From Candidatus Nomurabacteria bacterium (GTDB taxonomy: Bacteria > Patescibacteriota > Minisyncoccia > Phycocordibacterales > UBA918): a stretch of 64,000 nucleotides of DNA. This document shows, piece after piece, positions 27,724-62,721 of this stretch. Location: assembly GCA_023898585.1 (NCBI GenBank), contig CP060229.1:462763-526762 (forward strand). Direction: 5' to 3'. Under the pieces are notes generated by a model, which worked only from the letters and a program-made list of their open reading frames with translations, made no database searches and was not told the origin of the DNA. Every line of letters begins with the position of its first letter. The first letter of the stretch is position 1. The position numbers and the translations under genes are program-made.

Positions 27724-29138
27724 ATTACCATCTTTACCCGAGGTAATAGTGATAATTTAATCTAAATCTGTTAGTCTCCAATGACCAACTTACTTATCCG
27801 GAACTGGTGCTTGACTTTAATTTCTTTTTCTATAGAATAGCCATCACGTATTTATGAGTTTTGAGAAAAGAACACTTTCGTAGCAAGAAATTTCGCAGAT
27901 TGCGATTTAACTTGCCGCGAGATTGCGGTTTTTTCTTTCAAAATTCAAAGGGATGCGGGTTGTTTGACAATTCCCATGACCGAGCGTCACGCGACCAAAT
28001 GTGCGAACACTTTGTGTTCATTATTTGGTTGCATGACCGAGCGAATGGGGATTGTATGGCTTGACCATACAATCGCATATTCATTAAGGACAGGTTGATA
28101 AGACCTGTCCCAAAAAGTCCTACGGCGACATTGTTTTCTTGTGAGCGAATGCGAACTAGAAAACGAGAAGTGCCTTGTGGTAAATCGACGTCGTCGTAGG
28201 CAACCCCCGCATAAAGCTAGAATCGACGCTAGCGCGGGGGAGTAGGTAAAAAAGTGTGTCGGGTTAAGAGTTTGTCCAATCGGACAGGTCTTTTCGTCCT
28301 CGACACGCTAAACACAAAGATCGTAGATTTTCCTAAGGAAAAATCTACGATCAGTCCGGAGTATGTATCTCCGGACAACACTCAAAAAATTGTGCAGCGG
28401 TGCACAGCGTTTTTGTGAGGAGCATGTCATCAGCGAAATCTGGCGACGGACCTTACTTTCGAGCGAGCGAGTGAAATGGAAGTAGCCATCAGGCCATTTA
28501 CATTTCCGAGCGAGCGAAGAAAGCAAGGAACGTTATACAGAAACGCAGTTGATGTATAACGTTCCTTACAGGAACAAAGGGTGTATGGTGGATGCCTTGG
28601 CTTCAAGAAGCGATGAAGGACGTGATATGGCTGCGATAAGTTTCGGGGAGGTGCCAAATAACCTTTGATCCGGAAATGTCCCAATGGGGAAACCCTACTA
28701 CTTTCAGTAGTAACCCTTGTATGAGGGGGCGTACCTAGGGAAGTGAAACATCTCAGTACCTAGAGGAATAGAAAGCAATAGACGGAAATTTCTTTTTGAG
28801 CGGATGCTTTGCATCAGCTCATTGAGCATGGTGCTTTGCGCCATTACGCTCAAGAAGAAGGTTCTTGCGATTCCCGGAGTAGCGGCGAGCGAAAGGGGAA
28901 TAGCCCAAATCCTGCACCTTTTAAGGTGCAGGAGGTTGTAGGGCGGAATCTGCATTTAGTTGCAGAGAGTTACAAAACAGATATATAGGAAAACACGTTG
29001 GGAAGCGTGACCCCAGTAGGTAATAGTCCTGTATTCGAAATGTATCTGACTCTCTTGGTTCCGTTCCTGAGTAGCGCGGGACATGAATAGCCCGTGTGAA
29101 TCCACCAGTACTAACTGGTAAGGCTAAATATTCTTGAA

Positions 29139-29184
<46 letters not shown>

Positions 29185-29949
29185 GGAGAGGGGAGTGAAA
29201 TAGATCTGAAACCATACATCTACAAGGAGTCGGACCCAGCTCCAGATTCGTAATCTGAATCAACGGGCTTTATAAGATCAACCGCAGTTGTTTTATAGAG
29301 CAAAGTTGTGAAAATCGTGAATCTGGAGCTGGGGACGGCGTGCCTATTGAAGAATGAGCCGGCGAGTGTATATCTATGCTTTGTCTAAGTGGCAATCCCA
29401 CGGAGGCACAGTGAAAGCGAGCGTGAATAGCGCGAATATAGCGTAGGTATACGACCCGAAGCGGGAAGAGCTTGCCATGAGCAGGGTGAAGCGACTGTAA
29501 TAGGTCGTGGAGGCCCGAACCGGTTGGCCGTACAAAACCATCGGATGACTTGTGGTAAGGAGTGAAAAGCTAATCGATTTCCGTAATAGCTGGTTCTCTC
29601 CGAAACAGCTTTAGGGTTGGCGTCGTGTGTTTCCTACGGGGGTAGAGCACTGGAAGGTCAAAATAGGGGGAAACTTCGTTTGACCTATCAAACTCCGAAT
29701 ACCGTTAGGCCACAGCACGGCAGTTAGACTACGGGGGAGAAGCTCCGTTGGTCAAAAGGGAAACAGCCCAGATCGCCAGTTAAGGTCCCAAAATATATGC
29801 TCAGTGCAAAATGAGGAGGTGAGGATTCACAAACAGTGAGGAGGTTGGCTTAGAAGCAGCCATCCTTTAAAGATAGCGTAATAGCTCACTCATCGAGAGT
29901 CCTTGCGCCGAAAATGATCGGGGCTCAAGCATATTACCGAAACTGCGGA

Positions 29950-30332
29950 TTCGTAGGCTTCATTTAGGAAAAGTTTATGTCCAAGGGGACAGTTTGATGG
30001 TCGTCAGAGTCCGCTCGCGCAGCGGAACAGCGTACGACCACAGCTGCCCACCAAGCATGCAAAAACAGTAAAGATGTCTCCTGAGGCGAGCGCCACCTGG
30101 CGCGTTAGTGACGGGCACTGCGCAGACTGTTAACATTGCATACTTTTCGTCGGGAGTGTTCGAAAGAACCCCCTTGGACTCCCGTTCTTTTACGTCGAGA
30201 CAATTTTGGTCCCCGGTAGCTTAGTTGGCAGAGTAGCTGAATGCAAATCAGTGAACACTGGTTCGACTACAGTCCGGGGAACCAAAATTGTCTCACGTAC
30301 CATTTCAAACAAGCGTTTGAATCCTAAATGAA
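29950..30332 (+). other. intervening sequence (about 345 nt) inserted in the apical loop of 23S helix 45, closed by a 20-bp stem (UUCGUAGGCUUCAUUUAGGA / UCCUAAAUGAAGCCUACGAG)
   Basis: Flanks align to E. coli H45 (GCGGCAGCGACGC..GCGUUGUUGGGUAGGGGAGCGU); the interior has no 23S homology. Confidence 0.7.
30210..30284 (+). ncRNA. tRNA-like cloverleaf (anticodon-loop GCA, encoded ACCA 3' end) embedded inside the helix-45 insertion, carried on a 21-bp extended stem
   Basis: UCCCCGG acceptor/CCGGGGA, D-arm GCUU..AGUUGGCAGAGU, anticodon stem GCUGA/UCAGU with loop AUGCAAA, T-loop UUCGACU but G53-A61 mismatch; flanked by GAGACAAUUUUGG / CCAAAAUUGUCUC. Confidence 0.45.
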
Positions 30333-30865
30333 GCCTACGAGTGGTAGGAGAGCGTCCATCTCTGCGATGAATCCAAGGCGGGAGCCGCGGTGGAGCGAGG
30401 TGGAGTGAGAATGCCGGCACAAGTAACCGCAAGGCAGGTGAGAACCCTGCCCGCCGAAATACCAAGGTTTCCTTTGCGATGGTGATCATCGAAGGGTTAG
30501 TCGGTCCTAAGGGAATCCCGAATGGGGGACCCGATGGAGAGCAGGTTAATATTCCTGCACACTGTTATGTTCCTATGGAGGGACGGAGCGTTGTACCCAA
30601 AGCTTCTTATTGGATTGGAGCTGGAGCTATGAGCGTGTTACTTAGGTAAATCCGGGTAGCAATAGCGCGAGTAGGGTCTGAATGTGAGCCTTCGGGTGAG
30701 CAAATAAGGGGAGCACGCTTCCGAGAAAAACTTCGTTTGGGTTAAGCATAATGGTTCCGTACCGCAAACCGACACAGGTGGTAGAGTCGAGAAGACTAAG
30801 GCGAACGAGTGAGAGGTCCTCAAGGAACTCGGCAAAATAGCGGCCGTAACTTCGGGATAAGGCCC

Positions 30866-31174
30866 GCCAGCCCTAGATTTGGGGTATGATAGTTGAATGC
30901 ACGCTGTGTACGTGATTCAAAACAATGAGACTAAAGAAGTCTATATTGGTCGTACTGCCAATCTCAAAACAAGACTGGTTGAACACAATTCGCGCGGTAA
31001 GAAAAGCACCACGCGCAATAGTGGCAGCTGGAAGTATATTTATGTTGAACTTTTTCGAAGTACTGATGATGCTATTGAGCGCGAAAAGAAGCTCAAAGCG
31101 CACGGTAGTGGTAAACAAAAGTTGATGTCACGACTTCGAAAAAGCTTGTTTTGAGCCCCAAATCTAGGGCTGGC
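30866..31174 (+). other. 23S helix (E. coli about 1710-1750 region) expanded by a 271-nt loop that consists almost exactly of a GIY-YIG ORF
   Basis: Stem GCCAGCCCUAGAUUUGGGG / CCCCAAAUCUAGGGCUGGC; the ORF starts 12 nt after the stem and stops 1 nt before it. Confidence 0.65.
30897..31154 (+). CDS. small GIY-YIG nuclease-domain protein encoded inside 23S rRNA
   Basis: VYVIQNNETKEVYIGRTANLKTRLVEHN (GIY..YIG, Arg, Glu); 85 aa; paralogue at 54231-54500. Confidence 0.6.
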   Translation: MHAVYVIQNNETKEVYIGRTANLKTRLVEHNSRGKKSTTRNSGSWKYIYVELFRSTDDAIEREKKLKAHGSGKQKLMSRLRKSLF

Positions 31175-31366
31175 CGCAGCGAAAGATTTCCTGCCGACTG
31201 TTTAACAAAAACACAGCTCTCTGCTAACACGAAAGTGGATGTATAGAGGGTGACGCCTGACCTATGCCGGAAGGTTAAGTACGGATGGTGATATGAGATT
31301 CGTCTTGTATTGCTGGGCTGTATAAGCCCCGGTAAATGTCAGCGATAACTATAATCGTTCTAAGGT

Positions 31367-31599
31367 CGAGTGCGTGATTTATTCGTGCATTCGACGGATT
31401 GGGACGATTGTAGAGTTAAATAGCCTAGCCATAGTTACCTTGCGACACAGAAATGTGGCGCATAATCCAAACCAAGCCGTCAAGAGACCAGATGCTTGGC
31501 ACCGCAGCACACGGATCATTGATCTGGGGTGGTGGTGAAGATAGAGTCCAATTGTGAAATGTCCCCGCTACGTTTGTGGTGGAGGAGAAGGAAAAATTG
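31367..31599 (+). other. 233-nt ORF-less intervening sequence at the conserved CUAAGGU|AGCGAAAUUCC site (E. coli about 1917); probable minimal group I intron
   Basis: Exons rejoin to CUAAGGU+AGCGUAUUUCCUUGUCGGGUAAGUUCCGAC; the insert follows a U and ends in G. Confidence 0.55.
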
Positions 31600-32202
31600 A
31601 GCGTATTTCCTTGTCGGGTAAGTTCCGACGTGCACGAATGGCGTAACGAGTGGGAAACTGTCTCGAGGACCTGCTCGGTGAAAATACAATCCCGGTAAAG
31701 ATGCCGGGTACCTGCAGTTAGACGAAAAGACCCCAGGAGCTTTACTGTAATTTCGTATTGGGGCTGTTGAGTTAATGCGTAGCATAGGAAGGAGACTTTG
31801 AAGCGAGCTTTCGGGTATCGTGGAGTCACCAGTGAAATACTTCCCTTTATTTTGGCAGTCTCTAACCGGTGTGGCAAAACCACATCGAGACAGTGCGTGA
31901 TAGGCAGTTTTAGTGGGGCGCTACCCTCCCAAATCGTAACGGAGGGGTCTCAAGGTTGGTTAGGCGCGAATGGAAACCGTGCCGATAGTGTAATGGCATA
32001 AACCAGCTTGACTGTGAGGAGTAGATTCCGAACAGATACGAAAGTAGAGCATAGTGAACCGATGGTTGGCTTTAGACGCCGCCGGAGATTACCCGATAAA
32101 AGTTACCCTGGGGATAACAGGCTAGTTGTGCCCAAGCGTCCATAGCGACGGCACAGTTCGGCACCTCGATGTCGGCTCATCTTATCCTGGGGCTGGAGCA
32201 AA

Positions 32203-33024
32203 CCATATCTGCTCTCCTTGCTGGAAACAGCAAGGTAATCGGTTGGTGGATTTTGTCTTTGGCATAATCCACCAACCGGACTGTAACAATGCGGTACCCT
32301 CCGCGGTACAGGAAACAAGCTCAAAACGGAGAAGGCTGACTCATGCGGTCTAGGGAAGACAAATGACCTGCAGTTTCGCAGGTCCCAGGTGTGCTACACT
32401 TGGAGTATGAGAGCTAATTCCGTAGGAAAGATGTGTTCTGAAGTCGATCTGGCATATGTTGCTGGTTTGGTTGATGGAGATGGCGCTATCATGGCGTGTA
32501 TCGAACCACACCAAGAAAAGAAGTTTCGGTTCAGAGTAAGGGTTGTTTTCAAAGTCACTCAAAAACACAAGGAAGACTTAATATTTCTTGAAAAATTGTT
32601 TGAGTGTGGCTTAATAAGACAAAACGGATCAACATACGATTGGATAGTGCGCGATCAACAATCGCTCGCTACCATACTTGGTATGTTACTCCCTTACTCC
32701 CGCTCGAAACAGCAGCAAATTAAGCTTGCGTTAGATATTCTTCATACTGAAATAGTAACCAAAGAAGACCTACTGCGAGTTGCCACATTGGCGGATGCAT
32801 TGTCACGGTTTAACGTTCGGTCCAACAACCGACGAAAAAACCATGTGACAATGATCCAAGAACACATTTCCTCTAACGACTGATCGCTACTGGTTGGCAG
32901 TAGCGTGAGATATACCCGCTTTGTGGGGTATCACACGGCTTGCACCTACGGTGCGTGTGGTGACACGCGTACTACGGTGATGGAATAGTCTGATCTATGC
33001 GGGAACGCATAGTTAACAGCAAAA
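32203..33024 (+). other. about 820-nt group I-type intron in the peptidyl-transferase region (GGGGCUG.AG | .AGGUCCCAAGGG), carrying a LAGLIDADG ORF
   Basis: Exons align to E. coli GGGGCUGAAGUAGGUCCCAAGGGUAUGGCUGUUCGCC; exact boundaries are ambiguous by ±3 nt (AGCAAA repeated at both junctions). Confidence 0.65.
32389..32883 (+). CDS. LAGLIDADG homing endonuclease (single-motif), intron-encoded
   Basis: DLAYVAGLVDGDGAIMA motif; 164 aa. Confidence 0.75.
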   Translation: MCYTWSMRANSVGKMCSEVDLAYVAGLVDGDGAIMACIEPHQEKKFRFRVRVVFKVTQKHKEDLIFLEKLFECGLIRQNGSTYDWIVRDQQSLATILGMLLPYSRSKQQQIKLALDILHTEIVTKEDLLRVATLADALSRFNVRSNNRRKNHVTMIQEHISSND

Positions 33025-33150: not shown

Positions 33151-33938
33151 AGTAATTGCTACTTCAAGGAGAGATCCTTGATGACAATACGGCTTATAAC
33201 GGTGAAGTCTAAGTCAAATCTGGTTTTAGAGAATGATTGACCAAGGTCCAGTGTCAATCAAACTCGCTTGAGGACCGGAATCTTGATATGATAATACCGT
33301 GGGAAGTCGATCCGACACAGATTTAGCATACATTGCGGGTTTCCTTGATGGAGACGGAAGCATTATGTTGCAGGTAAAGTCGCGTAGCGATACAAATCGC
33401 GGAGTGCGCTTTATGGCAACTATCTGCCTCTATCAAGATACTCGTCACGAGAGTCCACTGTTGTGGATGCGTGAAATCTTTGGTATCGGGTACATATCAC
33501 ACCGTAAGGATAGTATTACCGAACTGAGAGTTAATGGTTTTGCTTCGGTAAGAAGAATACTCATTTTGCTCCAGCCTTACATTAGGTTCAAACAAGTACA
33601 AGTAACAGCATTGTTGAATGCTTGCGAAATACTTGGTGGCCGCAGGGTTGGTGATCTGAATGAAGTCCAGCTGAAAGAGTTGGTTGATCTGGTTTTTTTG
33701 ATCAGGGAAAACAACTATAAAAGCAGGCAGACGCTTACCAAAGAAACATTGCTACTGCGTTTGGGTTTGACCCCGTAACGACTTGCACTGAAATATGTGC
33801 AGACCGCATGTTGATGAATCATTTCTTTGAAAATGACTGACCATGCAGGTAACATGCCGTCGCCCTCGCCCTTTGCCTTTCAAGGTGCAGGGACGGGTGA
33901 AGATATAGTCTGTGCTCCTAGAAATAGGGGAATCCACG
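33151..33938 (+). other. about 788-nt group I-type intron inserted within the sarcin-ricin loop (…UCCGUAGUA | CGAGAGGACC…), carrying a LAGLIDADG ORF
   Basis: Joined exons give UUGAGGAGAGUUGUCCGUAGUACGAGAGGACCCGG, which aligns to E. coli CUGAGGGGGGCUGCUCCUAGUACGAGAGGACCGG; the intron ends in G. Confidence 0.6.
33299..33778 (+). CDS. LAGLIDADG homing endonuclease (single-motif), intron-encoded
   Basis: DLAYIAGFLDGDGSIML motif; 159 aa. Confidence 0.75.
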   Translation: MGSRSDTDLAYIAGFLDGDGSIMLQVKSRSDTNRGVRFMATICLYQDTRHESPLLWMREIFGIGYISHRKDSITELRVNGFASVRRILILLQPYIRFKQVQVTALLNACEILGGRRVGDLNEVQLKELVDLVFLIRENNYKSRQTLTKETLLLRLGLTP

Positions 33939-35371: not shown

Positions 35372-35484
35372 TGCAAGTTGGTGATTTGGGGAGAGGGGTA
35401 CACCCGTTCTCATTCCGAACACGGAAGTAAAGTCTCTTACCACCGATGGTACTGCGCAAGCGGAAGAGTAGGTAGTCGCCAACT
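35372..35484 (+). rRNA. rrf: 5S rRNA
   Basis: Helix I CAAGUUGGUG / CGCCAACUUG; CCGAACACGGAAGUAAAG; GAGUAGGUAGUCGCC. Confidence 0.85.
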
Positions 35485-49988: not shown

Positions 49989-51848
49989 ATGCAACCCGAA
50001 TTAGTAAACGCCATCAAAGAACGAGTGAAGCTTGGCTATAGCGAAGAACTGATAATCAGAGAATTAGTTTCCGCCGGTTACGAAAAGGCAGACGCTGAGT
50101 CTATCTATGATGAAGTGACGGGTGTAAAAAAAGTGGCTCCCATACCTCAATCACCCACAAACCCGCCCGAAAAAAGTGTGTCGACGGGAAGTAGTCAAGT
50201 AATTAACGTGACTGATGACTCCGAATTAAGCAGGCCTCACAAAAGCCACGTACCCTTGATTGTCGGTATCATACTGCTCTTGTTAATAGCCGGTGCAGTT
50301 GCTGGAGCTTTCTACTTTAAGCCGTTTGATTTTAATTTTGGAACATCAGCGCCGTACATGACGGAGAGGGAGATGATGGAAGGAATGATTACCAACAACC
50401 AGACTTTGACTGCACATGGTTTCAATCTAGGTCTACTTTTTGCTGTAGAAAAACGTGAGGAAAATGTTCGTTTACTTGATAAAAACGCTTTACCAGAGGA
50501 GGTTAGAGGTGATTTTGACCAAAACCTTTCAGAAATCATAAAATTTGGTGGAATGCCGGCGGAAGCGGAGATGAAAATTGACGCTTCAGGATTGGTGGAC
50601 GGTAGAAATACCGGACAGCCTGAGCTTGATATTTCGGTGAACGTAAGCGCTAAAGCCGAGCCGTTTTTCATCAATACTTCCGGTAGCTTGCGACTGGCTG
50701 ATGGTAAGTTGTATGGAAAAATCGATCGTATACCGGCTAATTTCGAAATGTATATGGGAGGAATTCCGACCGAGACATGGATCATACTGGAAGACGGAGC
50801 GGGTTTTGATTTACCGATTAAACCAACTGTGCCAATTAAAGCTAAACAGGTTCTCAATGTACTGCCACCCGAGGTATTGAATTTACTAACCAATGAAATT
50901 GGACGTCTGGTAACGAGTCCGGTCAAGTTAGCAACGCGTTCCAAAAATTTTCTCTCGGGACAAGTTGCTCAGCTTAGCGCGGTTCCTCTACTAGACACCA
51001 ATATGAGCGAGGAAGAGGTGTTGCTCTTGGAGCGTTCGCTTGAATTGTTGAAAGAATATCCGGTGATAAAAATAGTTGGCGAGCCGGAGCGAATAAAGAA
51101 TGAAGATGGGGTTGTATACAAATACGAATTAGATATAGATTTTGATAATTTGCAAACATATCTACTTAAGCTGATAAGTGAAGGGGAAGCGATAACGGGT
51201 GAAACCATACCGGTGACTGAAACTGAAATAAGAGCTTCGATTGGTGCTATTCGACCAATGTTGGATGAAGTCAATCGGTTGACGGATATCATCTATACCT
51301 TCCGGCAGGACGGGACTCTTGCCGGAGCAACTGTTAAAAGTGTATTTTCCTTTGACCATCCGGATATGAAACAACAGTTTCGCTTTGAGTTTGACATGAC
51401 CACTACCAGACAAAATGATGCTCTTGATATAACCGCGCCGGAAGATGTACATCCGGAGACACTTGAGGAAATAATCATGGGTCATGTTGAAGAGGCGAGG
51501 CAAAAAGGTTCGGAAGCATCTATTAAACAAAGTATGCACAATATTCGAGCTCAGGCAGAACTAGTTTATAATCAGGATAGTTTTAGTTACAGTGAAGTGT
51601 GTGCTAATGAAACAGTACAAGCGCTCCTTTTCGCAATAGTTGATAATTACCCTTACTCCCCTGATACAGAGAGGGATGGGGTCTCTGCTCCAGGAAAGAT
51701 CGTGTGTAATGACACGGACAATGCTTATGCGATCATTACTCCTTTGGCCTCGGATCAGTCTATCTCCTACTGTATAGATAGCACAGGGTTCGCTGATGAA
51801 GTGTCACCTGTTGTGCTTAGTTCTGGGACTGACTACGAATGTAGGTAG
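49989..51848 (+). CDS. large membrane protein: conserved 45-aa N-terminal cytoplasmic module, TM helix, extracellular region ending in a pilin-like Cys-containing domain
   Basis: N-terminus PELVNAIKERVKLGYSEELIIRELVSAGYEKADAESIYDEV (paralogue in 52691 gene); C-terminus NIRAQAELVYNQDSFSYSEVC. Confidence 0.45.
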   Translation: MQPELVNAIKERVKLGYSEELIIRELVSAGYEKADAESIYDEVTGVKKVAPIPQSPTNPPEKSVSTGSSQVINVTDDSELSRPHKSHVPLIVGIILLLLIAGAVAGAFYFKPFDFNFGTSAPYMTEREMMEGMITNNQTLTAHGFNLGLLFAVEKREENVRLLDKNALPEEVRGDFDQNLSEIIKFGGMPAEAEMKIDASGLVDGRNTGQPELDISVNVSAKAEPFFINTSGSLRLADGKLYGKIDRIPANFEMYMGGIPTETWIILEDGAGFDLPIKPTVPIKAKQVLNVLPPEVLNLLTNEIGRLVTSPVKLATRSKNFLSGQVAQLSAVPLLDTNMSEEEVLLLERSLELLKEYPVIKIVGEPERIKNEDGVVYKYELDIDFDNLQTYLLKLISEGEAITGETIPVTETEIRASIGAIRPMLDEVNRLTDIIYTFRQDGTLAGATVKSVFSFDHPDMKQQFRFEFDMTTTRQNDALDITAPEDVHPETLEEIIMGHVEEARQKGSEASIKQSMHNIRAQAELVYNQDSFSYSEVCANETVQALLFAIVDNYPYSPDTERDGVSAPGKIVCNDTDNAYAIITPLASDQSISYCIDSTGFADEVSPVVLSSGTDYECR

Positions 51849-51914: not shown

Positions 51915-52619
51915 TTAAGAAATCTTCGTCCCGATAAATTCTTCATTATGAAGATAATTTTTCAGAGCATCCGGTCTTGCACCGTTGATGATAGCCACTT
52001 CGATACCTTTTTCATCAGCCACTTTGGCCGCTATCGGATCAAATGGGGTGGACAGACCGGGGTCCCATTCAGTCGGTATAAGGGCTCTAAAATCAGTCCA
52101 TGTGATATTTTCTATTTTTTTTGCGTCAGGATTGGTGCGTGGGTCGTCAGTGTAGACAAAGTCTATGTTGGACAAGTTGATCACTTTCTTAGCGCCGACG
52201 TGTTCGGCAATTTGAATCGCTCTTAGGTCGGTTGAACAACCCGGCCGGTAGCCGGAGGCGATAATAACCTTTTCTCCGCTCGGAACATCGAGAATATCAT
52301 CGGGATTGGTGATCATTTCTCGGTGCGCGATATCTCGGAAAATGGTTCGAAGCAGGTGTCCATTGAGTCTCGTTGCGTGAATACCCATCCAATCGAGATC
52401 ATCTCTTGTTAGGTCTGTAACTTCGCCCGCCGCGTCCTGATACCTTCTTGCTGTCCGGCCCCCGCCGGCAATAATAATAAAACGACGGTCATCAGCCGTT
52501 TCTTCATCAACAAATTTTTTTAGGGTTATTAAAAAACCGGTGTCTATCTGGTCCGGCACAATCAAAGAGCCACCGACCGACATCACTATTGTTTCGTGTG
52601 TATCCATATCGTTGTGCAT
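51915..52619 (-). CDS. pyrH: UMP kinase, archaeal-type amino-acid-kinase fold
   Basis: IVMSVGGSLIV and IIIAGGGRTARRY motifs; 234 aa. Confidence 0.6.
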   Translation of the reverse strand: MHNDMDTHETIVMSVGGSLIVPDQIDTGFLITLKKFVDEETADDRRFIIIAGGGRTARRYQDAAGEVTDLTRDDLDWMGIHATRLNGHLLRTIFRDIAHREMITNPDDILDVPSGEKVIIASGYRPGCSTDLRAIQIAEHVGAKKVINLSNIDFVYTDDPRTNPDAKKIENITWTDFRALIPTEWDPGLSTPFDPIAAKVADEKGIEVAIINGARPDALKNYLHNEEFIGTKIS

Positions 52620-52690: not shown

Positions 52691-54196
52691 ATGTCACCAG
52701 AATTAATAGCTTCCGTTAAAGAACGTCTCGGACTGAAGTACCAAGAAGATGCTATCAAGGAAGAGCTGAGAGAGGCTGGTTATGATGAGTCGATCATAGA
52801 GCAAGTCTTGATTGAGGCGCGGTCCGAATTGGGTTTGATTGCAAGGCCGGTACCGGTTCCTTCGCCAGAAAACAGATCGTCGTATAGAGGGTTGGGTGAG
52901 ACGTTTGTCTCAGGAGTTGTTCTCCCTCCGGTTTGGGATTTTGTCAACGATTCATACCAGAAGGCCTTTAGTAACTGGAATCTAATCCTTTTGCTTTTAT
53001 TGATGCAGATATTGAATATATTGGCCATCGGTTATTTTGTTTTTCAGTTTTTTGCCGAAATGCTTGGTGGAGGTGGCGCCGGTGTCTTGCTATTCTTTCC
53101 GGTTTTTATATTTCTGGGGTTGTTGTCAATGGTGGTAACGCTTACCGTACTTAGGTTTATCGCCAAGGAAAGAGAATTAGAGAGTATCGGGGGAGCATTC
53201 AAGTGGTCTTTGAGAAACTTCCTTCCTTTTCTCTGGGTGATGATACTAATGGCTTGTGTTGTTTACGGTGGCACAATACTGCTGGTCATACCGGGGATAA
53301 TAGTCATGGTTCTGCTTATTCCGGCCGTTTATGTTTTTGTTTGTGAGGGTATTAGGGGTCTTGATGTGTTGATGCGTAGCAGACAACTGGTGCTTGGCTA
53401 CTGGTGGCCGGTCGCTGGTCGGCTATTCGCATTGTTGATAAGTGTGTATGTAATACTTTTCGCCTTGATGTTCATGATTGAGTTATCTATTGATCCTCTA
53501 ACTACTTCTACTTCACCGACGTTATCTCTTATTCTACCCATGGTACTGCCTCAGCTCATAATGACCGCAGTCTTTTTGGTGTTTTACTTCGGTATACATC
53601 AGATATATGTTGCTTTGGCCAAGGCTCGACCTCTTTCCACATTTGATCCAAAAGAATCCCGCGGTAGATACAAAGTGTTGGCAGGTTTAGGATTATTTTT
53701 CCCGGTTATAGCTATACTCAGTTCCGTGGTGTTGGCTTCTTTAAATTCCGCCAGAAACGAGGCTAAAGAAGCTTCTTTTCTACATAATTTGAATTCAGTC
53801 CGGCCGGTAGCCGAGATTTACTACAATAATAATGGTTTTTCTTATGACGGTGTGTGTGGGGAGATAAAACCTTTGGTTCAGAGCAGGAACTCCGAGTGTA
53901 TTGATGCTGATGACTCTTGGGCTATGACGGCGACTCCTAACGATAGACCAATGGCTGAGAGATACTGCGTCGATGATCTTTCCAGTCCCCAAAAAGGATA
54001 TTTAGATTACGATCGAGCAAAGTGTTCAGCCGGGAGCAGGCCTGTAAATTACGAAAATGATTACGATGATAATGAAGGACTTATGGACGCGAAAAGTCGA
54101 GCCACAGATTTGCGTTCTAATCAGAAAGAAAACGACGCAAATGAGCGCGTACCGAAACAAGACCTCATCGACAGTGAGTCGTTTTTTGATAACTAA
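52691..54196 (+). CDS. membrane protein paralogous in its N-terminal module to the 49989 gene; six to seven TM helices; C-terminal pilin-like segment
   Basis: N-terminus PELIASVKERLGLKYQEDAIKEELREAGYDESIIEQVLIEA; C-terminus LNSARNEAKEASFLHNLNSVRPVAEIYYNNNGFSYDGVC. Confidence 0.45.
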   Translation: MSPELIASVKERLGLKYQEDAIKEELREAGYDESIIEQVLIEARSELGLIARPVPVPSPENRSSYRGLGETFVSGVVLPPVWDFVNDSYQKAFSNWNLILLLLLMQILNILAIGYFVFQFFAEMLGGGGAGVLLFFPVFIFLGLLSMVVTLTVLRFIAKERELESIGGAFKWSLRNFLPFLWVMILMACVVYGGTILLVIPGIIVMVLLIPAVYVFVCEGIRGLDVLMRSRQLVLGYWWPVAGRLFALLISVYVILFALMFMIELSIDPLTTSTSPTLSLILPMVLPQLIMTAVFLVFYFGIHQIYVALAKARPLSTFDPKESRGRYKVLAGLGLFFPVIAILSSVVLASLNSARNEAKEASFLHNLNSVRPVAEIYYNNNGFSYDGVCGEIKPLVQSRNSECIDADDSWAMTATPNDRPMAERYCVDDLSSPQKGYLDYDRAKCSAGSRPVNYENDYDDNEGLMDAKSRATDLRSNQKENDANERVPKQDLIDSESFFDN

Positions 54197-54230: not shown

Positions 54231-54500
54231 GTGGTAATTTCAATGTTCTACTTCTATGTAATAGAAAATTATTTAGGTGAGCTGTATTTTGGGAGCACCA
54301 ATGATTTGAAACGTCGTTTTATAGAGCATAAAACTGGCAAATGCTTTTCTACTAAGGGCAGTGATTGGAAATTGATTTATTACGAGGCGTACAGGGACGA
54401 ATCTGATGCAAGTCGGAGGGAACAGAGAATAAAAGATCATGGTCAAGCGGTAAGACACTTAAAGGAGAGATTGAAAAATTGCAGAAGGAGTAAAGATTGA
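54231..54500 (+). CDS. standalone small GIY-YIG nuclease-domain protein (paralogue of the 23S-embedded one)
   Basis: FYVIEN..GELYFGSTNDLKRRFIEHKTG. Confidence 0.6.
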   Translation: MVISMFYFYVIENYLGELYFGSTNDLKRRFIEHKTGKCFSTKGSDWKLIYYEAYRDESDASRREQRIKDHGQAVRHLKERLKNCRRSKD

Positions 54501-54511
54501 ATGGGGGTTTA

Positions 54512-54569
54512 CCCCGCACTCAGTTTTTCCTATGGAGTATCAACTCCATAGGAAAAACTGAGTGCGGGG
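54512..54569. terminator. exceptionally long perfect hairpin (27-bp stem: CCCCGCACUCAGUUUUUCCUAUGGAGU-AUCA-ACUCCAUAGGAAAAACUGAGUGCGGGG)
   Basis: Read directly from the sequence; lies between the GIY-YIG gene and the SD-bearing island. Confidence 0.7.
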
Positions 54570-54752
54570 TTGACAATTCTCCAAAGTATGCTAGCTTATC
54601 AGTGTCTTCACGACGCGCGACAGATGTGGTGTAATCTTTTTTAAAGAAATTGCCACTTCTGCCTCGCGTACGCGAGGCAGAACCTGCTGACACAGCGTCA
54701 GCAGAACCTGTCGGCGTCGCCGACTTACGCTTTATCCTAGGAGGGATAAGTG

Positions 54753-55169
54753 ATGAAAAAGATCTTCAAAACAATGACCGCCGTCGCTCTGACCACTATC
54801 GCCTTGAGCTTTCCCGTCGGTGGGGTCGCAGGTGAAGTTTGTATCACCTGCGACAATCCGACCACTCTGGTCGACCGTGTTTCCTTTGGCGGGAAGACTT
54901 CGGCCAAAGGTCGTTCGACCTTCACCGCCGACGGAAACCACTCGGAATTCGAGACTGTCGGTCTCACCGACGGGTATGGAATGATCGAGGGTAAGATCGG
55001 ATTGGCTGGGGGCTGTGATACCCCCGAGTGTGCCCGGCGCACATGGGAGGGTGTTGCTAAAGCTGGTCAAATCCAGAGTTCGACGACAACCGTTAAGTTT
55101 AACGGTCACGGCTCGTTTGGGTCTACCAATCGTGCCAGTGCGAGAGCTTTACTCGAGGTCCGAAAGTGA
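54753..55169 (+). CDS. small secreted Cys-containing protein
   Basis: SD AGGAGGG 6 nt upstream; signal peptide MKKIFKTMTAVALTTIALSFPVGGVAG. Confidence 0.45.
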   Translation: MKKIFKTMTAVALTTIALSFPVGGVAGEVCITCDNPTTLVDRVSFGGKTSAKGRSTFTADGNHSEFETVGLTDGYGMIEGKIGLAGGCDTPECARRTWEGVAKAGQIQSSTTTVKFNGHGSFGSTNRASARALLEVRK

Positions 55170-55191
55170 CCTGACGTCCGGTGCATTATCG

Positions 55192-55228
55192 CCGAGCATC
55201 CTTTTTCCTCCGGAAAAAGGATGCTCGG
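55192..55228 (+). terminator. hairpin CCGAGCAUCCUUUUUCC-UCC-GGAAAAAGGAUGCUCGG
   Basis: Perfect 17-bp stem. Confidence 0.7.
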
Positions 55229-55462
55229 CACCCACCACCAATCTATATTTGTAATTGTAAAATTTTACACCACAGATACTAGAGAGGTGGTTTTTTAATA
55301 TTAAAAAATCCCACAAATTAAGACTTTTTCACATAAAACACTTGCTTTTTTGTCAAAAGTATGATATACATTGCTCCAAATATAAGGACTTGACATACAT
55401 TGAGGTACGTTGTGTCCAAGTTATTTGACAACAGAATATAAATTGAAAAGGAGAAACAAAGA

Positions 55463-56104
55463 ATGAAAATTTCAGTCCAGTGGCTTATCGTAGTGCTCGT
55501 GTACTGTGGTACCAGCGTTGCTGGTGCCAATGAAGAACCATTTTTTTGGAAAAAGATGGTAAGCAGATTTGCTACAGACTTTTCGGAGTCTGAAGTGTCC
55601 TGCCGGGTGTTGGCTAAAGGAAACAGCCTTGACAAGTTCACAGAAGAACTTGCCAACACTATATGCCCGGAGTTGCAACGACAGTTGCAGGCCGGGGAAT
55701 GTAAAAAAGTCACTATTGACATGCGTGGTATACAACACGCACTCATGGCAGAACGAACAGGAAAGAAGGGAAATGAAATTACGGCACGTCAAAATGCCGT
55801 GGTGAACTTACCTTTCCGACCGGAGGCACTGGAGTGTCACATTGGCGAAACGAAAGAGTTTCGATTTGTGTCTACAGTGTATGTGGGCAAACAACCTAAC
55901 GGTGAGCAGGCCTGCTACAACGTAACCATTGATATGTTACCGGTTGTTCCGGTGCTACCTGAAGTCTCAACAGTGAGAGCGATTCCTTACGAATTCAGTA
56001 CCCAAGGGACATCATCAAGCAATTGGTGGACACCGAGATCTGAATTGCCTCTCGACTATTGCGTGCCCGATGTGGTGCGTGACATGGTGAATCGCAGACG
56101 TTAA
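55463..56104 (+). CDS. secreted hypothetical protein
   Basis: SD AAGGAG; signal peptide MKISVQWLIVVLVYCGTSVAGA. Confidence 0.45.
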   Translation: MKISVQWLIVVLVYCGTSVAGANEEPFFWKKMVSRFATDFSESEVSCRVLAKGNSLDKFTEELANTICPELQRQLQAGECKKVTIDMRGIQHALMAERTGKKGNEITARQNAVVNLPFRPEALECHIGETKEFRFVSTVYVGKQPNGEQACYNVTIDMLPVVPVLPEVSTVRAIPYEFSTQGTSSSNWWTPRSELPLDYCVPDVVRDMVNRRR

Positions 56105-56149
56105 ACAATTTCAAATTTCAACTTTCAACTTCTTAAAGAGGAATTGTAG

Positions 56150-56662
56150 ATGAACACTAAAACGATATCAACATTGCTTCTTGTTGTCGTCTTCTTGATT
56201 TCCGGGTGTTCCAGCTCGAGATCAATGACGCTACCGGATGGAGCTCAATTTTCCAACAATTTTATTTCGTCACCAGGTCTGGTCGACGGATTAAACGGCA
56301 CGCTATTTCGTGTAGCAATACCACAACTCGACGAGTTTGGTAGACCGATCATGAAGAAAGATAGCGAGACCGGCGAAATGTTACCAACCTACGCAGATGT
56401 TAAATACCACCTTGTGCCAGATGAGCCAATTGCTGGAGAGGCGACTAAAATCATCTTGCAGGGTGTTATCGACATTGGAGTCGGCGCAGCTCTGACTAAA
56501 ATCGCTGATAACATCAGCGGTGGAGGCTGTAAAGGTCCTAGCTGTCCTTCATCAGGGGTGCAGGTGCTTAACGTCAACGAGAATTTCGTTCACGGCGAAG
56601 CCTCTGTCAAATCTGTTTGCGGTACCGCCGGATGTGGGGGGGCGTTTAGTCCCGCTCCATAG
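56150..56662 (+). CDS. lipoprotein (lipobox LISGC)
   Basis: SD AGAGGA; MNTKTISTLLLVVVFLISGCSSS. Confidence 0.5.
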   Translation: MNTKTISTLLLVVVFLISGCSSSRSMTLPDGAQFSNNFISSPGLVDGLNGTLFRVAIPQLDEFGRPIMKKDSETGEMLPTYADVKYHLVPDEPIAGEATKIILQGVIDIGVGAALTKIADNISGGGCKGPSCPSSGVQVLNVNENFVHGEASVKSVCGTAGCGGAFSPAP

Positions 56663-56734
56663 AAGGCTTTCTCAAACATGGAGAGGGTGTAAAAACCCTC
56701 TCCTTCTTCAACAAAATTGTAAAAGGAGGTCGTC

Positions 56735-58006
56735 ATGACCACAAAAATCAAGTTTTACTTTTTGGCGGTTGTCGTCGGCCTCATAGTGTCGACCGCTGTC
56801 AATGCCGATGCTAATACCGGAAAATATTCCTGCACGAAAGTGTGGGGTAATCCGGTAACTCTGGAAAGTGATGAGAAAGGGGTGGTAGCCGGGACAACAA
56901 CCGGTGTTACCGCAGAGGGAAAAATCTCCATGAACCAATTGAACAGTCTATTGGTTCACGGATATGTTCAGAGCTACTGTTCAACTGAGTACGGCTTTAT
57001 GACGGAAGAGCAGAAAAACAACTTCCTCAATGAACGTCTCGCCAAGTTGGGATACAAGGTCGAAGGCGACCTGGTCGGTATAGGATGGGTGAGAAATCAT
57101 CTCATGATTCCCGGCTTTCAGCTGAATCTTCCAACAAAAAAGGTGGAGGAGGTTGTAACGCCGGCCGAGGTTGATGTTAAGAAAAACGTGACAGAGCTGA
57201 AACAACTTCAGCGACAGGTGGTGGCGGGTGAAGTGCCAGCTGATCTAAAGGATCAGCTGAAAAAGCTTCGCTCGGAAAACGCCAGGCTCGCTAAAGTGGC
57301 AAAAAACACGAAAGGCGATCTCGCCGAGCATGTCACCAAAACGAACGACGCTCTGAACAAGCTTGAAATTCTGGCTAAGGGAAACCTGACGCCGGAACTG
57401 AAAGCCGTGTTCGAAAGGATGGTCGAGGATCAGGTAGCCGGTATTGAATCCGGTTTAACTGATCTCCGATCAGAAGTGGCGGACGGCTTCACCTCCCTCA
57501 AGAGTGTTCAGGAAGAACAGGGGGGAAGGATCGAAGGAGTGCAGACGAGTCTCGAAATACTCCAGCAACACGCAAGCGTTGCTTCGGAAGAACGTGAGGA
57601 GTTGAGGGGCTTCGATCAGGCTTTCCTTAAGAGGCTCGATAAGCTCGGTCTGAAGGTGGGAGATCTGGAGGAGAAAGTCGATGAGAAAGTGCAAAAAGTT
57701 GAGAAAAGAGTCGACGAACTGGAGCGTGCGAAAAACGTCACCAACAGCCGGTTGGCTGAGAATGAAAGTCAGACCTCATACCTACAAATAAGCATTGGAT
57801 TCTTGGGTTTGGGTGTCTTGTCCTTCATAGCCTACTTTTTTGTTAAGTTAAGAAGGCAGGACAAACGGATGGTGGGGTTGGTTGGAAAAAAGAATACAAC
57901 ACCCGACATCAGGATCATCGCCCCTTCCAATAACCCCACAAGAATCAGGGAGGAAGAGATTGTTGAAGGGGAGATTGTTTCGGAAAGGAAACTCCGAATT
58001 GTGTGA
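56735..58006 (+). CDS. secreted coiled-coil protein with C-terminal TM anchor
   Basis: SD AAGGAGG; signal peptide; long heptad-like region (LKQLQRQVVAGEVPADLKDQLKKLRSENARLAKVAK…); C-terminal LQISIGFLGLGVLSFIAYFFVKLRRQ. Confidence 0.5.
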   Translation: MTTKIKFYFLAVVVGLIVSTAVNADANTGKYSCTKVWGNPVTLESDEKGVVAGTTTGVTAEGKISMNQLNSLLVHGYVQSYCSTEYGFMTEEQKNNFLNERLAKLGYKVEGDLVGIGWVRNHLMIPGFQLNLPTKKVEEVVTPAEVDVKKNVTELKQLQRQVVAGEVPADLKDQLKKLRSENARLAKVAKNTKGDLAEHVTKTNDALNKLEILAKGNLTPELKAVFERMVEDQVAGIESGLTDLRSEVADGFTSLKSVQEEQGGRIEGVQTSLEILQQHASVASEEREELRGFDQAFLKRLDKLGLKVGDLEEKVDEKVQKVEKRVDELERAKNVTNSRLAENESQTSYLQISIGFLGLGVLSFIAYFFVKLRRQDKRMVGLVGKKNTTPDIRIIAPSNNPTRIREEEIVEGEIVSERKLRIV

Positions 58007-58014
58007 CAGGAGAC

Positions 58015-58043
58015 GGAAGGTCGGCGCTCTGCGCCGACCTTCC
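58015..58043 (+). terminator. hairpin GGAAGGUCGGCGC-UCU-GCGCCGACCUUCC
   Basis: Perfect stem; the same stem sequence recurs at 59670. Confidence 0.7.
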
Positions 58044-58160
58044 AAGGAGTAAGTCTTGATTTATTCAAGATTTGTAGTATTATGTTCTTAGAAGATGATA
58101 GGCCAAGGGTACGTTACCTTTGGCTTTTTGTATATTTTGACAACAAAAGGAGATTTCCTA

Positions 58161-59663
58161 ATGAACAAAATTTTCACCAAACTTTTCCTCATGATTATTG
58201 GTGCTGTGTTGATGGTTGCGAACGCAAACGCCATCGCTCCGTCGAACAGTTGCGACATCTGGGACGATCCGGATTTGAGAAAATCCAATCACCCCAACTC
58301 GTACTTGAAAACAGCCGAGAAAGAGCTTCAGGAAAACAAGGCCGGACTTTTTCCGGTTTCCGCCCTTGGTGCCTACTGGAAGAAGGAGGTGTTGGGTCGA
58401 CCGAAGTGTAAAGAGCGCTTCTCACTTCTTACTCTGGAGAAACAGACCGACGACGGCTTCTTCAAGCATATACTTGAGGTGAATGGTAAACAGTACCCTA
58501 GCAAAGTGATGCGTTTTGTTTACCTGGAGCGCAACTTTCTCAACGGTCCGGCTCTCGAAACGCATTTGCCGATGAAGTTTTCGGTAATAGCGTCTAGGAA
58601 AGATAAGCCGAGTTCAGGCGCGGCGCAGAAAGCAAAATCAGGGAAAGTGGTAGTCTCGAAATCTTCAGAACCAACGGCCGATTCCAGAGTATGGAAGGAG
58701 TTGGAAGGTGTGAAGAAAGACATCGCCGACATAAACCATATGGTTGGCGGTGACGCGAGATTGCTTCCGCTTCTCAAGGAAGATATGAAGAGAGTGCAGA
58801 CCAAGTTGGCCGAGATTAGTGGCCTTACTGAAGGTTTTGCGAATCTCAAAGATGTGGTTCTCTTACAACAGAAGCAACTGGATTTGCTTAAGATCGGTGG
58901 CCCGGACATTGAGGCGAAGATCGATAAGATAAACCAGTCGATAGATGTTTTGTTCGGGAAGCATACCGAACAAATAAGTGCCTTACAATCAGAAACTCGT
59001 GCTCTGAGAGGGATATCGGAAAAGCATCAAGACGAAATACAAACTCTCAGGGAGGACTTTAACAGGCTAGGAACAAGCAGTAACGAACTAAGTGTGGTCA
59101 ATTCGATTGTTGGCAAGCTCGACAGAACCACTATTAGCTACATCTTTATTGGAGCTGTGGTCGTCTTGGTTTGGTTCCTTGCTTACGGGTCAAAGAGAAA
59201 TGATTTACTTGCCCGTTTGACAAGAGTGGAAATAGATCTTAATGGAGGCCGTAACCAGGAGAAGGGATATGGTCTGATGAAAAAAGTTTCACATCTCATG
59301 GAAGATTGCAAAATCCATTTTGGCTTGACGTCGAGCATGAGAACCATTCTCGAAAGTCAGATTGCCTGGGAGCACTCTGTATCAATCAACAGTCTGTATA
59401 AGTTGCCTGTTGGCATGAATCACATGGTGATGTGGGGTTTTGTCTACAACGGTAATTTTTACCTTGTTAAATTCTGGAGAAAGGCAGATACACCATTCGG
59501 GTATATCTGTACCAGTATCCTGCGTAATCCGAGGCAAGCCCATCCTAATCCGGCTGACCCGGTGCCGATCAAAGATCTACTTATGGTGTTATTGGAGGCG
59601 GTAGCTAAAGGTACGCTTCCGCCGTCACAGAGAAGTCAGAGAAGACAGTCGAACGGAGGGTGA
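58161..59663 (+). CDS. secreted coiled-coil protein with internal TM segment
   Basis: SD AAGGAG 8 nt upstream; signal peptide MNKIFTKLFLMIIGAVLMVANANA; coiled-coil centre; TM ISYIFIGAVVVLVWFLAYGS. Confidence 0.5.
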   Translation: MNKIFTKLFLMIIGAVLMVANANAIAPSNSCDIWDDPDLRKSNHPNSYLKTAEKELQENKAGLFPVSALGAYWKKEVLGRPKCKERFSLLTLEKQTDDGFFKHILEVNGKQYPSKVMRFVYLERNFLNGPALETHLPMKFSVIASRKDKPSSGAAQKAKSGKVVVSKSSEPTADSRVWKELEGVKKDIADINHMVGGDARLLPLLKEDMKRVQTKLAEISGLTEGFANLKDVVLLQQKQLDLLKIGGPDIEAKIDKINQSIDVLFGKHTEQISALQSETRALRGISEKHQDEIQTLREDFNRLGTSSNELSVVNSIVGKLDRTTISYIFIGAVVVLVWFLAYGSKRNDLLARLTRVEIDLNGGRNQEKGYGLMKKVSHLMEDCKIHFGLTSSMRTILESQIAWEHSVSINSLYKLPVGMNHMVMWGFVYNGNFYLVKFWRKADTPFGYICTSILRNPRQAHPNPADPVPIKDLLMVLLEAVAKGTLPPSQRSQRRQSNGG

Positions 59664-59669
59664 GGTGAA

Positions 59670-59694
59670 GGGGTCGGCGCAGAGCGCCGACCCC
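59670..59694 (+). terminator. hairpin GGGGUCGGCGC-AGA-GCGCCGACCCC (reverse-complement copy of the 58015 hairpin)
   Basis: Identical stem, complementary loop. Confidence 0.7.
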
Positions 59695-59837
59695 AGGAAG
59701 TTTTTCTCAATCAGGAGAAAAGGAAGTCAATTTTTGTTGTTGTTGCTTTGCAAATTCAATTTTACAAAGCTTTTCACCCCTCAGGCCATAGTGCACTGAG
59801 GGTTTTGCTATTTCAATAAAAATACTCACACAAAACG

Positions 59838-60415: not shown

Positions 60416-62009
<1,594 letters not shown>

Positions 62010-62224: not shown

Positions 62225-62270
62225 AACAAACAAAGAAAACCATCGGCATGCCGATGGTTTTCTTTGTTTG
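62225..62270. terminator. bidirectional hairpin AAACAAAGAAAACCAUCGGCAUGCCGAUGGUUUUCUUUGUUU
   Basis: Perfect 19-bp stem between the 16S 3' flank and the reverse-strand gene. Confidence 0.75.
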
Positions 62271-62292
62271 TACGCTCGACTGAATCACTTTT

Positions 62293-62721
62293 TTACTTAC
62301 ACTTACAAATAGTAACTCCCATAACATCTTCACATACAGAAGTTTGGCCGGGGCACGTAGGATTGTTGAATGCCCTTTCTTCTATATAGTCTGGAGTCGG
62401 AGAGTTTTTTCCGCCCAACCCGAAACTGCTACTTAATAAATTAATTATTCCCCAAAATATGACCATCATAACAAAGGCAAATACTCCATAAACCGCCAAA
62501 GCTTTCGCCTTGTCCCGGCCTTCCTCATTGGTACTGCCAAAAACAAAAAAACGAATAACGTTAATGATAAAGAAGAGAAAGGCGACCGCCATTAAAAACG
62601 GTATCACAACATCGCTAAGGAATTTCACGAAACTGACTAAAAAAGTCTGTAGACTATCAGTTGCCCCCAAGGCGGGAAGAGGAGCTAATATTAAAAGCAA
62701 AACGAGATAGTTTATTTTCAT
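62293..62721 (-). CDS. small secreted two-TM protein, VirB2/TrbC-pilin-like or competence-pilin-like (tentative)
   Basis: Signal peptide MKINYLVLLLILAPLPALGA, two hydrophobic helices, Cys-rich C-terminal tail. Confidence 0.35.
   Translation of the reverse strand: MKINYLVLLLILAPLPALGATDSLQTFLVSFVKFLSDVVIPFLMAVAFLFFIINVIRFFVFGSTNEEGRDKAKALAVYGVFAFVMMVIFWGIINLLSSSFGLGGKNSPTPDYIEERAFNNPTCPGQTSVCEDVMGVTICKCK

Follow-up and report, generated by a model that had tools for sequence, protein, structure and literature searches.

A syntenic envelope-protein cassette with Shine-Dalgarno-like motifs beside a 16S rRNA gene that lacks the anti-Shine-Dalgarno core

An SD-bearing island next to the 16S rRNA gene

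Analysis of 64 kb of a genome from a Kaiserbacteria-like clade of Parcubacteria, within the candidate phyla radiation (CPR), centered on an island of five genes that lies immediately upstream of the 16S rRNA gene (contig CP060229.1, positions 462,763 to 526,762; this whole stretch is the window, and positions below count from its first letter). The genes encode secreted, lipo- and coiled-coil membrane proteins, and each is preceded by a motif resembling a Shine-Dalgarno (SD) sequence, although the resident 16S rRNA has lost the core of the anti-SD. An identical island in an identical context was found in five independent assemblies, including GCA_020428745.1, which excludes a mis-assembly. The genes and motifs, with duplex free energies (ΔG) computed against the canonical anti-SD, and the 16S rRNA features are as follows.

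54739 to 54745, plus strand: SD-like motif of gene 1, AGGAGGG, 7 nt before the ATG at 54753; ΔG -10.7 kcal/mol
54753 to 55169, plus strand: gene 1 (g1), 138-aa secreted, Gly/Thr-rich protein with two Cys pairs (CITC, CDTPEC)
55448 to 55453, plus strand: SD-like motif of gene 2, AAGGAG, 9 nt before the ATG at 55463; ΔG -8.7 kcal/mol
55463 to 56104, plus strand: gene 2 (g2), 213-aa secreted protein
56137 to 56142, plus strand: SD-like motif of gene 3, AGAGGA, 7 nt before the ATG at 56150; canonical ΔG -6.0 kcal/mol
56150 to 56662, plus strand: gene 3, 170-aa lipoprotein with lipobox LISGC and a Cys-rich C-terminus
56723 to 56729, plus strand: SD-like motif of gene 4, AAGGAGG, 5 nt before the ATG at 56735; ΔG -12.3 kcal/mol
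56735 to 58006, plus strand: gene 4 (cc423), signal peptide, ectodomain, long coiled coil and C-terminal transmembrane (TM) anchor
58147 to 58152, plus strand: SD-like motif of gene 5, AAGGAG, 8 nt before the ATG at 58161; ΔG -8.7 kcal/mol
58161 to 59663, plus strand: gene 5 (cc500), second, paralogue-like coiled-coil protein with signal peptide and TM segment
60416 to 62009, plus strand: 16S rRNA gene, 1594 nt; insertions of 34 nt and 81 nt set it apart from the bacterial model
61996 to 62009, plus strand: 16S 3′ tail GGAUUAAUUCCAAU, read as GGATTAATTCCAAT; CCUCC is replaced by AUUCC at 62002-62006

An earlier reading of the letters alone (the sequence-only reading) had claimed a canonical SD on every gene between 54753 and 59663 and regarded this signal as peculiar to the island within the window, and both statements are borne out. 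All five motifs lie 5-9 nt upstream of their start codons with ΔG values of -6.0 to -12.3 kcal/mol, and at a threshold of -6 kcal/mol the five of five island genes compare with 4 of 44 other window genes (Fisher p=6.6e-5), at least one of which has a doubtful start. The true start of gene 5 is 58161, where the signal peptide begins, rather than the open reading frame (ORF) start at 58095. In gene 3, the motif AGAGGA is followed by AUUG, and the GGAAUU it contributes to is a full 6-nt complement of AAUUCC in the resident tail, with a ΔG of -7.1 kcal/mol there. The gene 1 motif, as read from the sequence, can occupy the loop of a small stem, UAUCC-UAGGAG-GGAUA. A closer relative (L018) keeps an SD at the gene 2 site with an altered sequence, AGAGAGGT. 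In addition, the word TTTGACAACA[GA]AA occurs on the plus strand at 55424-55436 and 58136-58148, just 5′ of the gene 2 and gene 5 motifs, and could be a shared operator or a chance repeat.

The proposal that the anti-SD of this organism is degenerate also holds. Where the tail GGAUUAAUUCCAAU is aligned with its E. coli counterpart, GGAUCACCUCCUUA, only UCC and a U able to wobble with G are left of the anti-SD core. The tail is exactly identical in 13 of 13 relatives with complete 16S genes; since it is common to these relatives, it is not a read error, and loss of the core is real and ancestral to the clade. Neither ACCTCCTT nor a hidden CCUCC was found downstream of the 16S gene, and no other plausible site in the window has a CCUCC-type sequence. 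Published surveys describe loss of the anti-SD motif for about half of the Parcubacteria (Tsurumaki et al. 2022, PMC9297842) and list CPR members among the "SD-scarce organisms lacking CCUCC" (category iv; PLoS One 2024, PMC10783764).

A clade-specific cassette with a conserved motif

In order to follow the island across relatives, the amino-acid-kinase (pyrH-like) gene on its left was used as a synteny anchor, which yielded 12 loci from species-representative genomes and 80 from metagenomes. The loci keep SecD-SecF-kinase synteny on one flank and the 16S gene on the opposite flank, while the gap between the kinase and 16S genes ranges from ~0.5 kb (L011, L014, L015, L084) to more than 9 kb. 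In dozens of loci the gap contains collinear genes on the 16S strand, and more than 40 related contigs have the same arrangement. The cassette, which lies between the kinase gene (with or without the neighboring membrane-protein gene p501) and the 16S gene, encodes in order a small, Cys-rich secreted protein that has two Cys pairs, a second secreted protein, of disulfide type and 200-275 aa long, a lipoprotein, and a protein of 400-520 aa with a signal peptide, a coiled coil and a C-terminal TM segment, the last of which is duplicated in the window copy. Cassettes of 3-5 genes with SD-like motifs and signal peptides are present in L006, L007, L009, L012, L019, L021-24, L026, L031, L033, L038, L046, L052/53, L056, L063, L070, L075, L080, L096 and others. 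By the synteny check suggested along with the sequence-only reading, the island is not absent from relatives but missing only in a minority of them.

The signal peptides, the LISGC lipobox, and the C-terminal TM segments of both coiled-coil proteins that had been noted earlier are visible in the translations. BLAST reveals almost no similarity between the window proteins and the cassette proteins of relatives, and homology is supported instead by position-consistent reciprocal weak matches, with phmmer clustering giving four positional families. Hidden Markov models (HMMs) built from relatives only, with the window proteins excluded and signal peptides removed, retrieve gene 1 (E=1.4e-3), gene 2 (E=1e-3), cc423 (E=2e-8), and cc500 (E=5e-3). 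The window copy of gene 3 was not detected by the lipoprotein family HMM from relatives, which do carry lipobox-bearing positional equivalents. cc500 additionally matches L024 by tblastn (1e-7) and has a C-terminal domain of ~130 aa past the TM segment that is presumably cytoplasmic. The gene 2 family has an invariant N153 and three nearly invariant cysteines, C80, C125, and C151; a conserved promoter-like element lies ~100 nt upstream of the gene. Profile searches with gene 2 recovered 5 proteins, and 37 cluster representatives among 1.84 billion proteins; ten of these representatives were looked up, and none carried an organism or functional name. The sole match of cc423 among 5.8 billion proteins is itself, a 423-aa protein that NCBI annotates as Candidatus Kaiserbacteria bacterium. 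Pfam searches with the island proteins returned coiled-coil noise only, with no significant family match and no recognisable fold or solved structure.

In L018, the proteins are 43-57% identical to those of the window (43% for gene 1) and occur in the same order. Across loci, cassette similarity grows with kinase identity (Spearman 0.29, p=1e-6), but cassettes whose kinases are 92% identical still have a bit-score ratio of only 0.4-0.47, and a few pairs are discordant. Ratios of nonsynonymous to synonymous divergence (dN/dS) of 0.14-0.34 (for most pairs, dS is close to 1 or higher) indicate that the cassette proteins are functional and under purifying selection. The five-gene island represents, in this genome, an envelope cassette that is specific to the clade, syntenic, and very fast-evolving. 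We read its history, from these sequence comparisons, as mainly vertical inheritance with very fast divergence and occasional replacement of the cassette within the clade. Its products would be surface or host-contact proteins under diversifying pressure, and the cassette is a candidate host-interaction locus in organisms not yet culturable. Capsule and O-antigen loci are likewise hypervariable, lie between conserved genes, and undergo occasional replacement. The cassette resembles them in its housekeeping-flanked slot, its collinear divergent genes, and its compositional offsets, but it has no biosynthetic enzymes, and all of its products are secreted or anchored proteins whose fold is not recognised.

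The SD-like signal is a property of the cassette across the clade. For clade-wide statistics, the first ATG was assigned blindly as the start, and 113 cassette genes with signal-peptide-like N-termini were compared with 440 genes outside the cassettes. At a ΔG of -5.4 kcal/mol or lower, 80% of cassette genes carry an SD-like motif (median -6.4 kcal/mol) compared with 3-9% of outside genes (Mann-Whitney p=4e-43), so that SD motifs are not common among other genes, as had been proposed; other genes within the gap reach this level in 7% of cases. A GGA with its first G at -17 to -8 precedes 86 of 113 cassette genes but only 28 of 440 outside genes (p=2e-51). The motif has the consensus AAAGGAGA, with the first G of GGA mostly at -10/-11, and is set in an A-rich leader of the form (A)AGGA(G).

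A phylogenetic footprint over 41 orthologous pairs of cassette genes with 35-85% protein identity indicates selection on this motif. Identity upstream of the start codon is mostly ~0.25-0.45, whereas from -15 to -7 it is mostly 0.5-0.78 and peaks at -11/-10, and among these pairs the motif is the only conserved element upstream of cassette genes. Because identity is confined to this short interval in hosts that all carry the AUUCC tail, the motif is under selection, and an un-ameliorated relic is ruled out; the pattern points to a motif that works in these anti-SD-less cells. The conflict between translation signals and 16S tail that had been noticed in one island is consequently real and stronger than first stated, being clade-wide and attached to a motif under purifying selection. 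Cassette genes are separated by spacers of 45-290 nt, most with a hairpin, and each forms a leadered unit, usually with its own hairpin terminator; separated in this way, they need an internal initiation signal. In other apparent operons, several adjacent genes abut within 1-3 nt (SecD/SecF/AAA_17), which allows coupling.

Genes outside the cassettes have a different upstream arrangement. A TATAAT-like hexamer starting at -17 to -12 precedes 107 of 392 outside genes, against ~1% per position elsewhere, and 1 of 90 cassette genes, and a T occupies position -1 in 56-66% of outside genes and 12% of cassette genes. In the window itself, -10 hexamers with at least 5/6 matches occur before 9 of 36 genes, and with at least 4/6 matches before 18 of 36, but before none of the five island genes. 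A -10 box at a fixed short distance together with T at -1 implies leaderless or near-leaderless mRNAs that need no SD, and most other genes of the clade are probably leaderless, as judged from these promoter positions. The A/T-rich leaders previously ascribed to the housekeeping genes are mostly the -10 promoter boxes of predicted leaderless transcripts. The literature searched contained no description of widespread leaderless transcription in these Parcubacteria. In genomes dominated by leaderless genes, for example those of Deinococcus and many Actinobacteria ("group C" of GeneMarkS-2), genes have a fixed -10 box near the ATG and a pyrimidine at -1, with no SD; a canonical anti-SD is retained there, and leadered genes as a rule use the SD. 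This clade differs from them in its mutated anti-SD and in having the SD-like motif in one cassette only.

Among the few non-cassette genes with AGGAG near the ATG is one for an extracytoplasmic function (ECF)-type sigma factor (Sigma70_r2/r4_2; 10999-11592, plus strand). It also has a GATAAT box at -16, and its AGGAG may for this reason not even be transcribed.

How the motif may be read

The explanation that we favor overall, although it falls somewhat short of an even chance, is that of a clade cassette with leadered genes and SD-like motifs in an anti-SD-less background of leaderless type. The motif would then be a short SD element that positions the 30S subunit, with GGA(G/A) pairing to what survives of the tail, 3′-CCUU-5′ (5′-UUCC-3′). 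At the canonical position, GGAG would form three Watson-Crick pairs and a G·U pair, and GGAA four Watson-Crick pairs. This residual pairing would provide a route to initiation for envelope genes that are leadered and non-coupled; leaderless genes can do without it. Consistent with this, binding to the resident tail is stronger for cassette leaders (median -3.8 kcal/mol) than for other leaders (~-1.1 kcal/mol), the tail is invariant in 13 genomes, gene 3 has the 6-nt complement GGAAUU, and the spacing is tight, with a mode at -10/-11 that is canonical SD geometry. The fifth G of GGAGG, whose partner C has been lost, is not preferred (GGAGG in 17 of 109, the base after GGAG being mostly A). We tentatively propose, with a little less assurance than for the overall picture, that residual GGAG·UUCC pairing with the mutated tail reads the motif.

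Several observations weigh against such pairing. The shape of the motif fits a canonical CUCCU reader better than the resident UUCCA: an A stands at motif position -1 in 69 of 86 cases, where it faces an A in the resident tail and a U in the canonical one, and G is preferred over A after GGA (46 compared with 26), although A pairs better with the resident U. The full complement GGAAUUA is not enriched, and predicted pairing with the resident tail is weak (roughly -2 to -4 kcal/mol). Conservation of the tail is just as high in relatives without a cassette (L008, L011, L015, L064, L084) and consequently cannot be credited to the cassette. Finally, the analysis covers 64 kb of the genome, which leaves room for a second 16S allele.

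We also considered an altered SD, in which AAUUAAU upstream of housekeeping genes would be complementary to the resident tail. The words TTAAT and ATTAA are enriched there only relative to whole-window background; with dinucleotide-preserving shuffles across the window and nine relatives the signal is z=1.18, and relatives with the same tail show no enrichment. AT-richness was taken to explain the signal, and the candidate was rejected. For SD-like words inside coding regions, synonymous-codon shuffles give values of 0.64 for GGAGG and 0.66 for its reverse complement CCTCC. As a separate observation in the coding regions of loci L006-L098, GGAAT, the exact complement of AUUCC, stands at 0.63 and ranks 13 of 1024 among depleted 5-mers, with ATTCC at 1.11; many GGA-containing words are depleted there too.

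A reader other than 16S rRNA is unlikely, but it is the alternative we take most seriously: AGGAG would be recognised by a CsrA-like regulator of A(N)GGA, a small RNA, or another ribosomal site, the cassette would be its regulon, and the SD resemblance would be historical or coincidental. The most frequent core, AGGA (81 of 109), with its A at motif position -1, is unexplained by the resident tail and suits such a reader, as do the confinement of the motif to one operon, the small stem that can hold the gene 1 motif in its loop, and the TTTGACAACA[GA]AA word that precedes two cassette genes. Against it, the motif keeps a tight spacing to the start codon (mode -10/-11) of a kind typical for ribosome positioning, the 64 kb yielded no candidate regulator gene, and neither a conserved flanking structure nor an Rfam element was found. 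That an AGGAG code has been kept for a single envelope regulon after loss of the anti-SD, through a non-canonical reader (protein, RNA, or specialised ribosomes), is likewise doubtful; if true, a second, operon-private initiation code would exist alongside genome-wide leaderless translation. Heterogeneous ribosomes, in which a second 16S gene or an alternatively processed 3′ end with canonical CCUCC translates the cassette, would account best for the shape of the motif, since A-GGAG with G preferred at the fourth position fits CUCCU. Such a second 16S allele is less likely than a non-16S reader, and in our estimation very improbable: a CCUCC-type sequence was found neither downstream of the 16S gene nor at any other plausible place in the window, a single rRNA set is the norm for CPR genomes of about 1 Mb, and a survey reports that multi-copy organisms retain one and the same anti-SD variant (PMC10783764).

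Horizontal acquisition, which the sequence-only reading had favored with a phage- or host-derived source in mind, would make the SD motifs un-ameliorated relics of an SD-using donor (phage, host, or other bacterium). The offset in codon usage and composition on which it leaned was confirmed by profiling within the window: the G+C content at third codon positions (GC3) is 0.47-0.60 in the island against 0.44±0.045 (maximum 0.50) in 34 other genes, with a shift to C/G-ending codons. Cassette GC3 also exceeds that of the host strongly in L006 (0.49-0.58 compared with 0.36), but equals it in L009 and L012, and the C-ending codon bias could instead reflect expression level. Occasional replacement between relatives would also explain the GC3 offsets. 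The absence of the cassette from some relatives (L011, L014, L015, L084), loci in which near-identical flanks enclose unrelated cassettes, the differing position relative to p501 in L012, and the GIY-YIG gene at the island border are further points in favor of a donor. Set against these, the cassette is syntenic and conserved in dozens of relatives, all with the same anti-SD-less tail; its similarity tracks that of the flanks, as given by the correlation above; and the motif has been kept while the surrounding leader and synonymous sites are saturated, and hence is no relic. The GIY-YIG gene, the only sign of mobility at the island, is strain-specific and absent from all other cassettes, and the gene 2 family has only its 37 cluster representatives worldwide. 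Scans of viral contigs with cc500 and g2 gave no match, nor did blastn of the island against phages and plasmids, and no convincing direct repeats flank the island. The acquisition reading thus appears already largely refuted, and we regard an SD-using donor as quite improbable. An artefact (chimeric assembly, mis-called starts, or chance motifs) is barely credible: only the general risk of metagenome assemblies speaks for it, while the five independent assemblies and more than 40 similar related contigs agree, the statistics use first-ATG starts, and signal peptides begin at the SD-defined starts.

The preferred picture, a leadered cassette with SD-like motifs among apparently leaderless genes, shares features with several known systems. 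Like the anti-SD-lacking Parcubacteria and other CPR members of the two surveys, this clade has a tail without CCUCC, almost no SD genes, and a variant tail common to relatives (PMC9297842, PMC10783764). In their accessible portions those accounts give genome-wide percentages only (2-7% of mRNAs), and they differ from the present case in its dedicated, conserved operon with selected SD-like motifs and in the leaderless-type promoter arrangement of the remaining genes. Flavobacteriia, which are SD-poor, have one exceptional unit that has retained a strong SD, rpsU (bS21) (McNutt et al. 2023, PMC9976891; PMC13000453); this, as here, implies a specialised use of SD recognition. As far as these sources describe it, the flavobacterial anti-SD is canonical and intact but sequestered, and the gene encodes the sequestering ribosomal protein and is autoregulated (PMC9976891; PMC13000453), whereas here the mutation lies in the anti-SD core itself, and the products are four or five secreted or membrane proteins. 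In modified-tail systems, as possibly here, an altered tail may still pair with upstream mRNA sequences; unlike in those systems, the motif shows no re-tuning to the altered tail and no GGAAUUA consensus, and its use is limited to a single operon.

Loss of the anti-SD in some CPR is already known and is usually taken as the end-point of abandoning SD-dependent initiation. What is new is a single conserved operon with SD-like motifs under purifying selection in an anti-SD-less lineage whose other genes are apparently leaderless, together with a surface-protein cassette next to the 16S gene that is clade-specific, diversifies rapidly, and had not been described before. The descriptive parts of this account are well supported, while the mechanism by which the motif would be read is inferred. 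The system offers a natural test of whether a three- to four-nucleotide anti-SD remnant is still functional or SD-like elements are read otherwise, and it is a warning for gene finders that two types of start signal can occur within one genome.

Flanking genes, hairpins, and other features of the window

The left flank of the island and its hairpins comprise the following features.

51915 to 52619, minus strand: amino-acid-kinase (pyrH-like) gene, PF00696; conserved left anchor of the variable region
52691 to 54196, plus strand: p501 membrane protein, no SD; adjoins the kinase gene in most relatives
54231 to 54500, plus strand: standalone GIY-YIG gene, PF01541, E=8.8e-14; no SD; GC3 0.38
54511 to 54570, no strand assigned: hairpin 3′ of the GIY-YIG gene, 28-bp perfect stem, -56.9 kcal/mol, z=-16.6
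54657 to 54724, plus strand: three consecutive GC-rich hairpins in the gene 1 leader, -43.8 kcal/mol, z=-7.1
55191 to 55229, plus strand: hairpin terminator 3′ of gene 1, 18 bp, -33.4 kcal/mol
56680 to 56703, plus strand: hairpin 3′ of gene 3, GGAGAGGGU/ACCCUCUCC, 9 bp
58015 to 58043, plus strand: hairpin GGAAGGUCGGCGC-UCU-GCGCCGACCUUCC, 13 bp, -27.6 kcal/mol
59670 to 59694, plus strand: hairpin, reverse complement of the 58015-58043 core, 11 bp, -25.5 kcal/mol

The GIY-YIG domain recognised earlier at the left border is confirmed by Pfam, but the gene does not introduce the island as had been suggested. No homologue was found by tblastn in any of ~90 related loci, which places the gene outside the conserved cassette, and both it and its hairpin, whose stem measures 28 bp rather than the 27 bp first counted, are unique to this species among the loci compared. 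The hairpins at 58015-58043 and 59670-59694 do share a stem, GGTCGGCGC/GCGCCGACC, in opposite orientations, being reverse complements of each other with loops TCT and AGA. The island hairpins, singled out as unusually stable, are present and very stable, but they are not island-specific and only ~3-fold denser there: the window contains 27 perfect hairpins with a stem length of 10 bp or more, and of those checked most are found directly 3′ of a gene. Long perfect hairpins are the usual intergenic structures of this organism. A scan of the island with Rfam at a permissive E-value gave sub-threshold hairpin look-alikes only, and a scan for promoter and terminator consensus sequences stayed at chance level.

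A paralogue of p501 is encoded at 49989-51848 (plus strand); the two share the N-terminus MxPELxxxxKERxxLG and have similar C-terminal parts. In L012, the p501 homologue lies on the 16S side of the cassette instead. Downstream of the 16S gene, a type IV secretion system (T4SS)-pilin-like gene at 62293-62721 (minus strand) is kept in relatives (PF18895, E=7.8e-06; 26.3 bits, with a cut-off of 26.6 bits), and a 21-bp perfect hairpin at 62226-62271 separates the two.

The rRNA genes of the window are unlinked, with the 23S gene at 28565-32289 (with insertions), the 5S gene at 35377-35484, and the 16S gene ~25 kb further on. A tRNA-Cys(GCA) gene lies within the 23S gene at 30210-30284 (plus strand; ARAGORN, and Rfam at 50.5 bits). 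Its host insertion of ~373 nt (about 29962-30334) sits in a hairpin loop of the 23S rRNA at position 1218 of the large subunit (LSU) model and is bordered by the inverted repeat GAGACAAUUUUGG/CCAAAAUUGUCUC; the arrangement suggests that the 23S rRNA is fragmented by tRNA processing. Between the 23S 3′ end (32289) and the 5S gene (35377), two ORFs on the plus strand encode LAGLIDADG endonucleases (32389-32883 and 33299-33778). These could be relics of introns; alternatively, the Rfam hit may understate the complexity of the 23S 3′ region. An ORF for an IS200-like Y1 transposase lies at 20877-21617 (plus strand).

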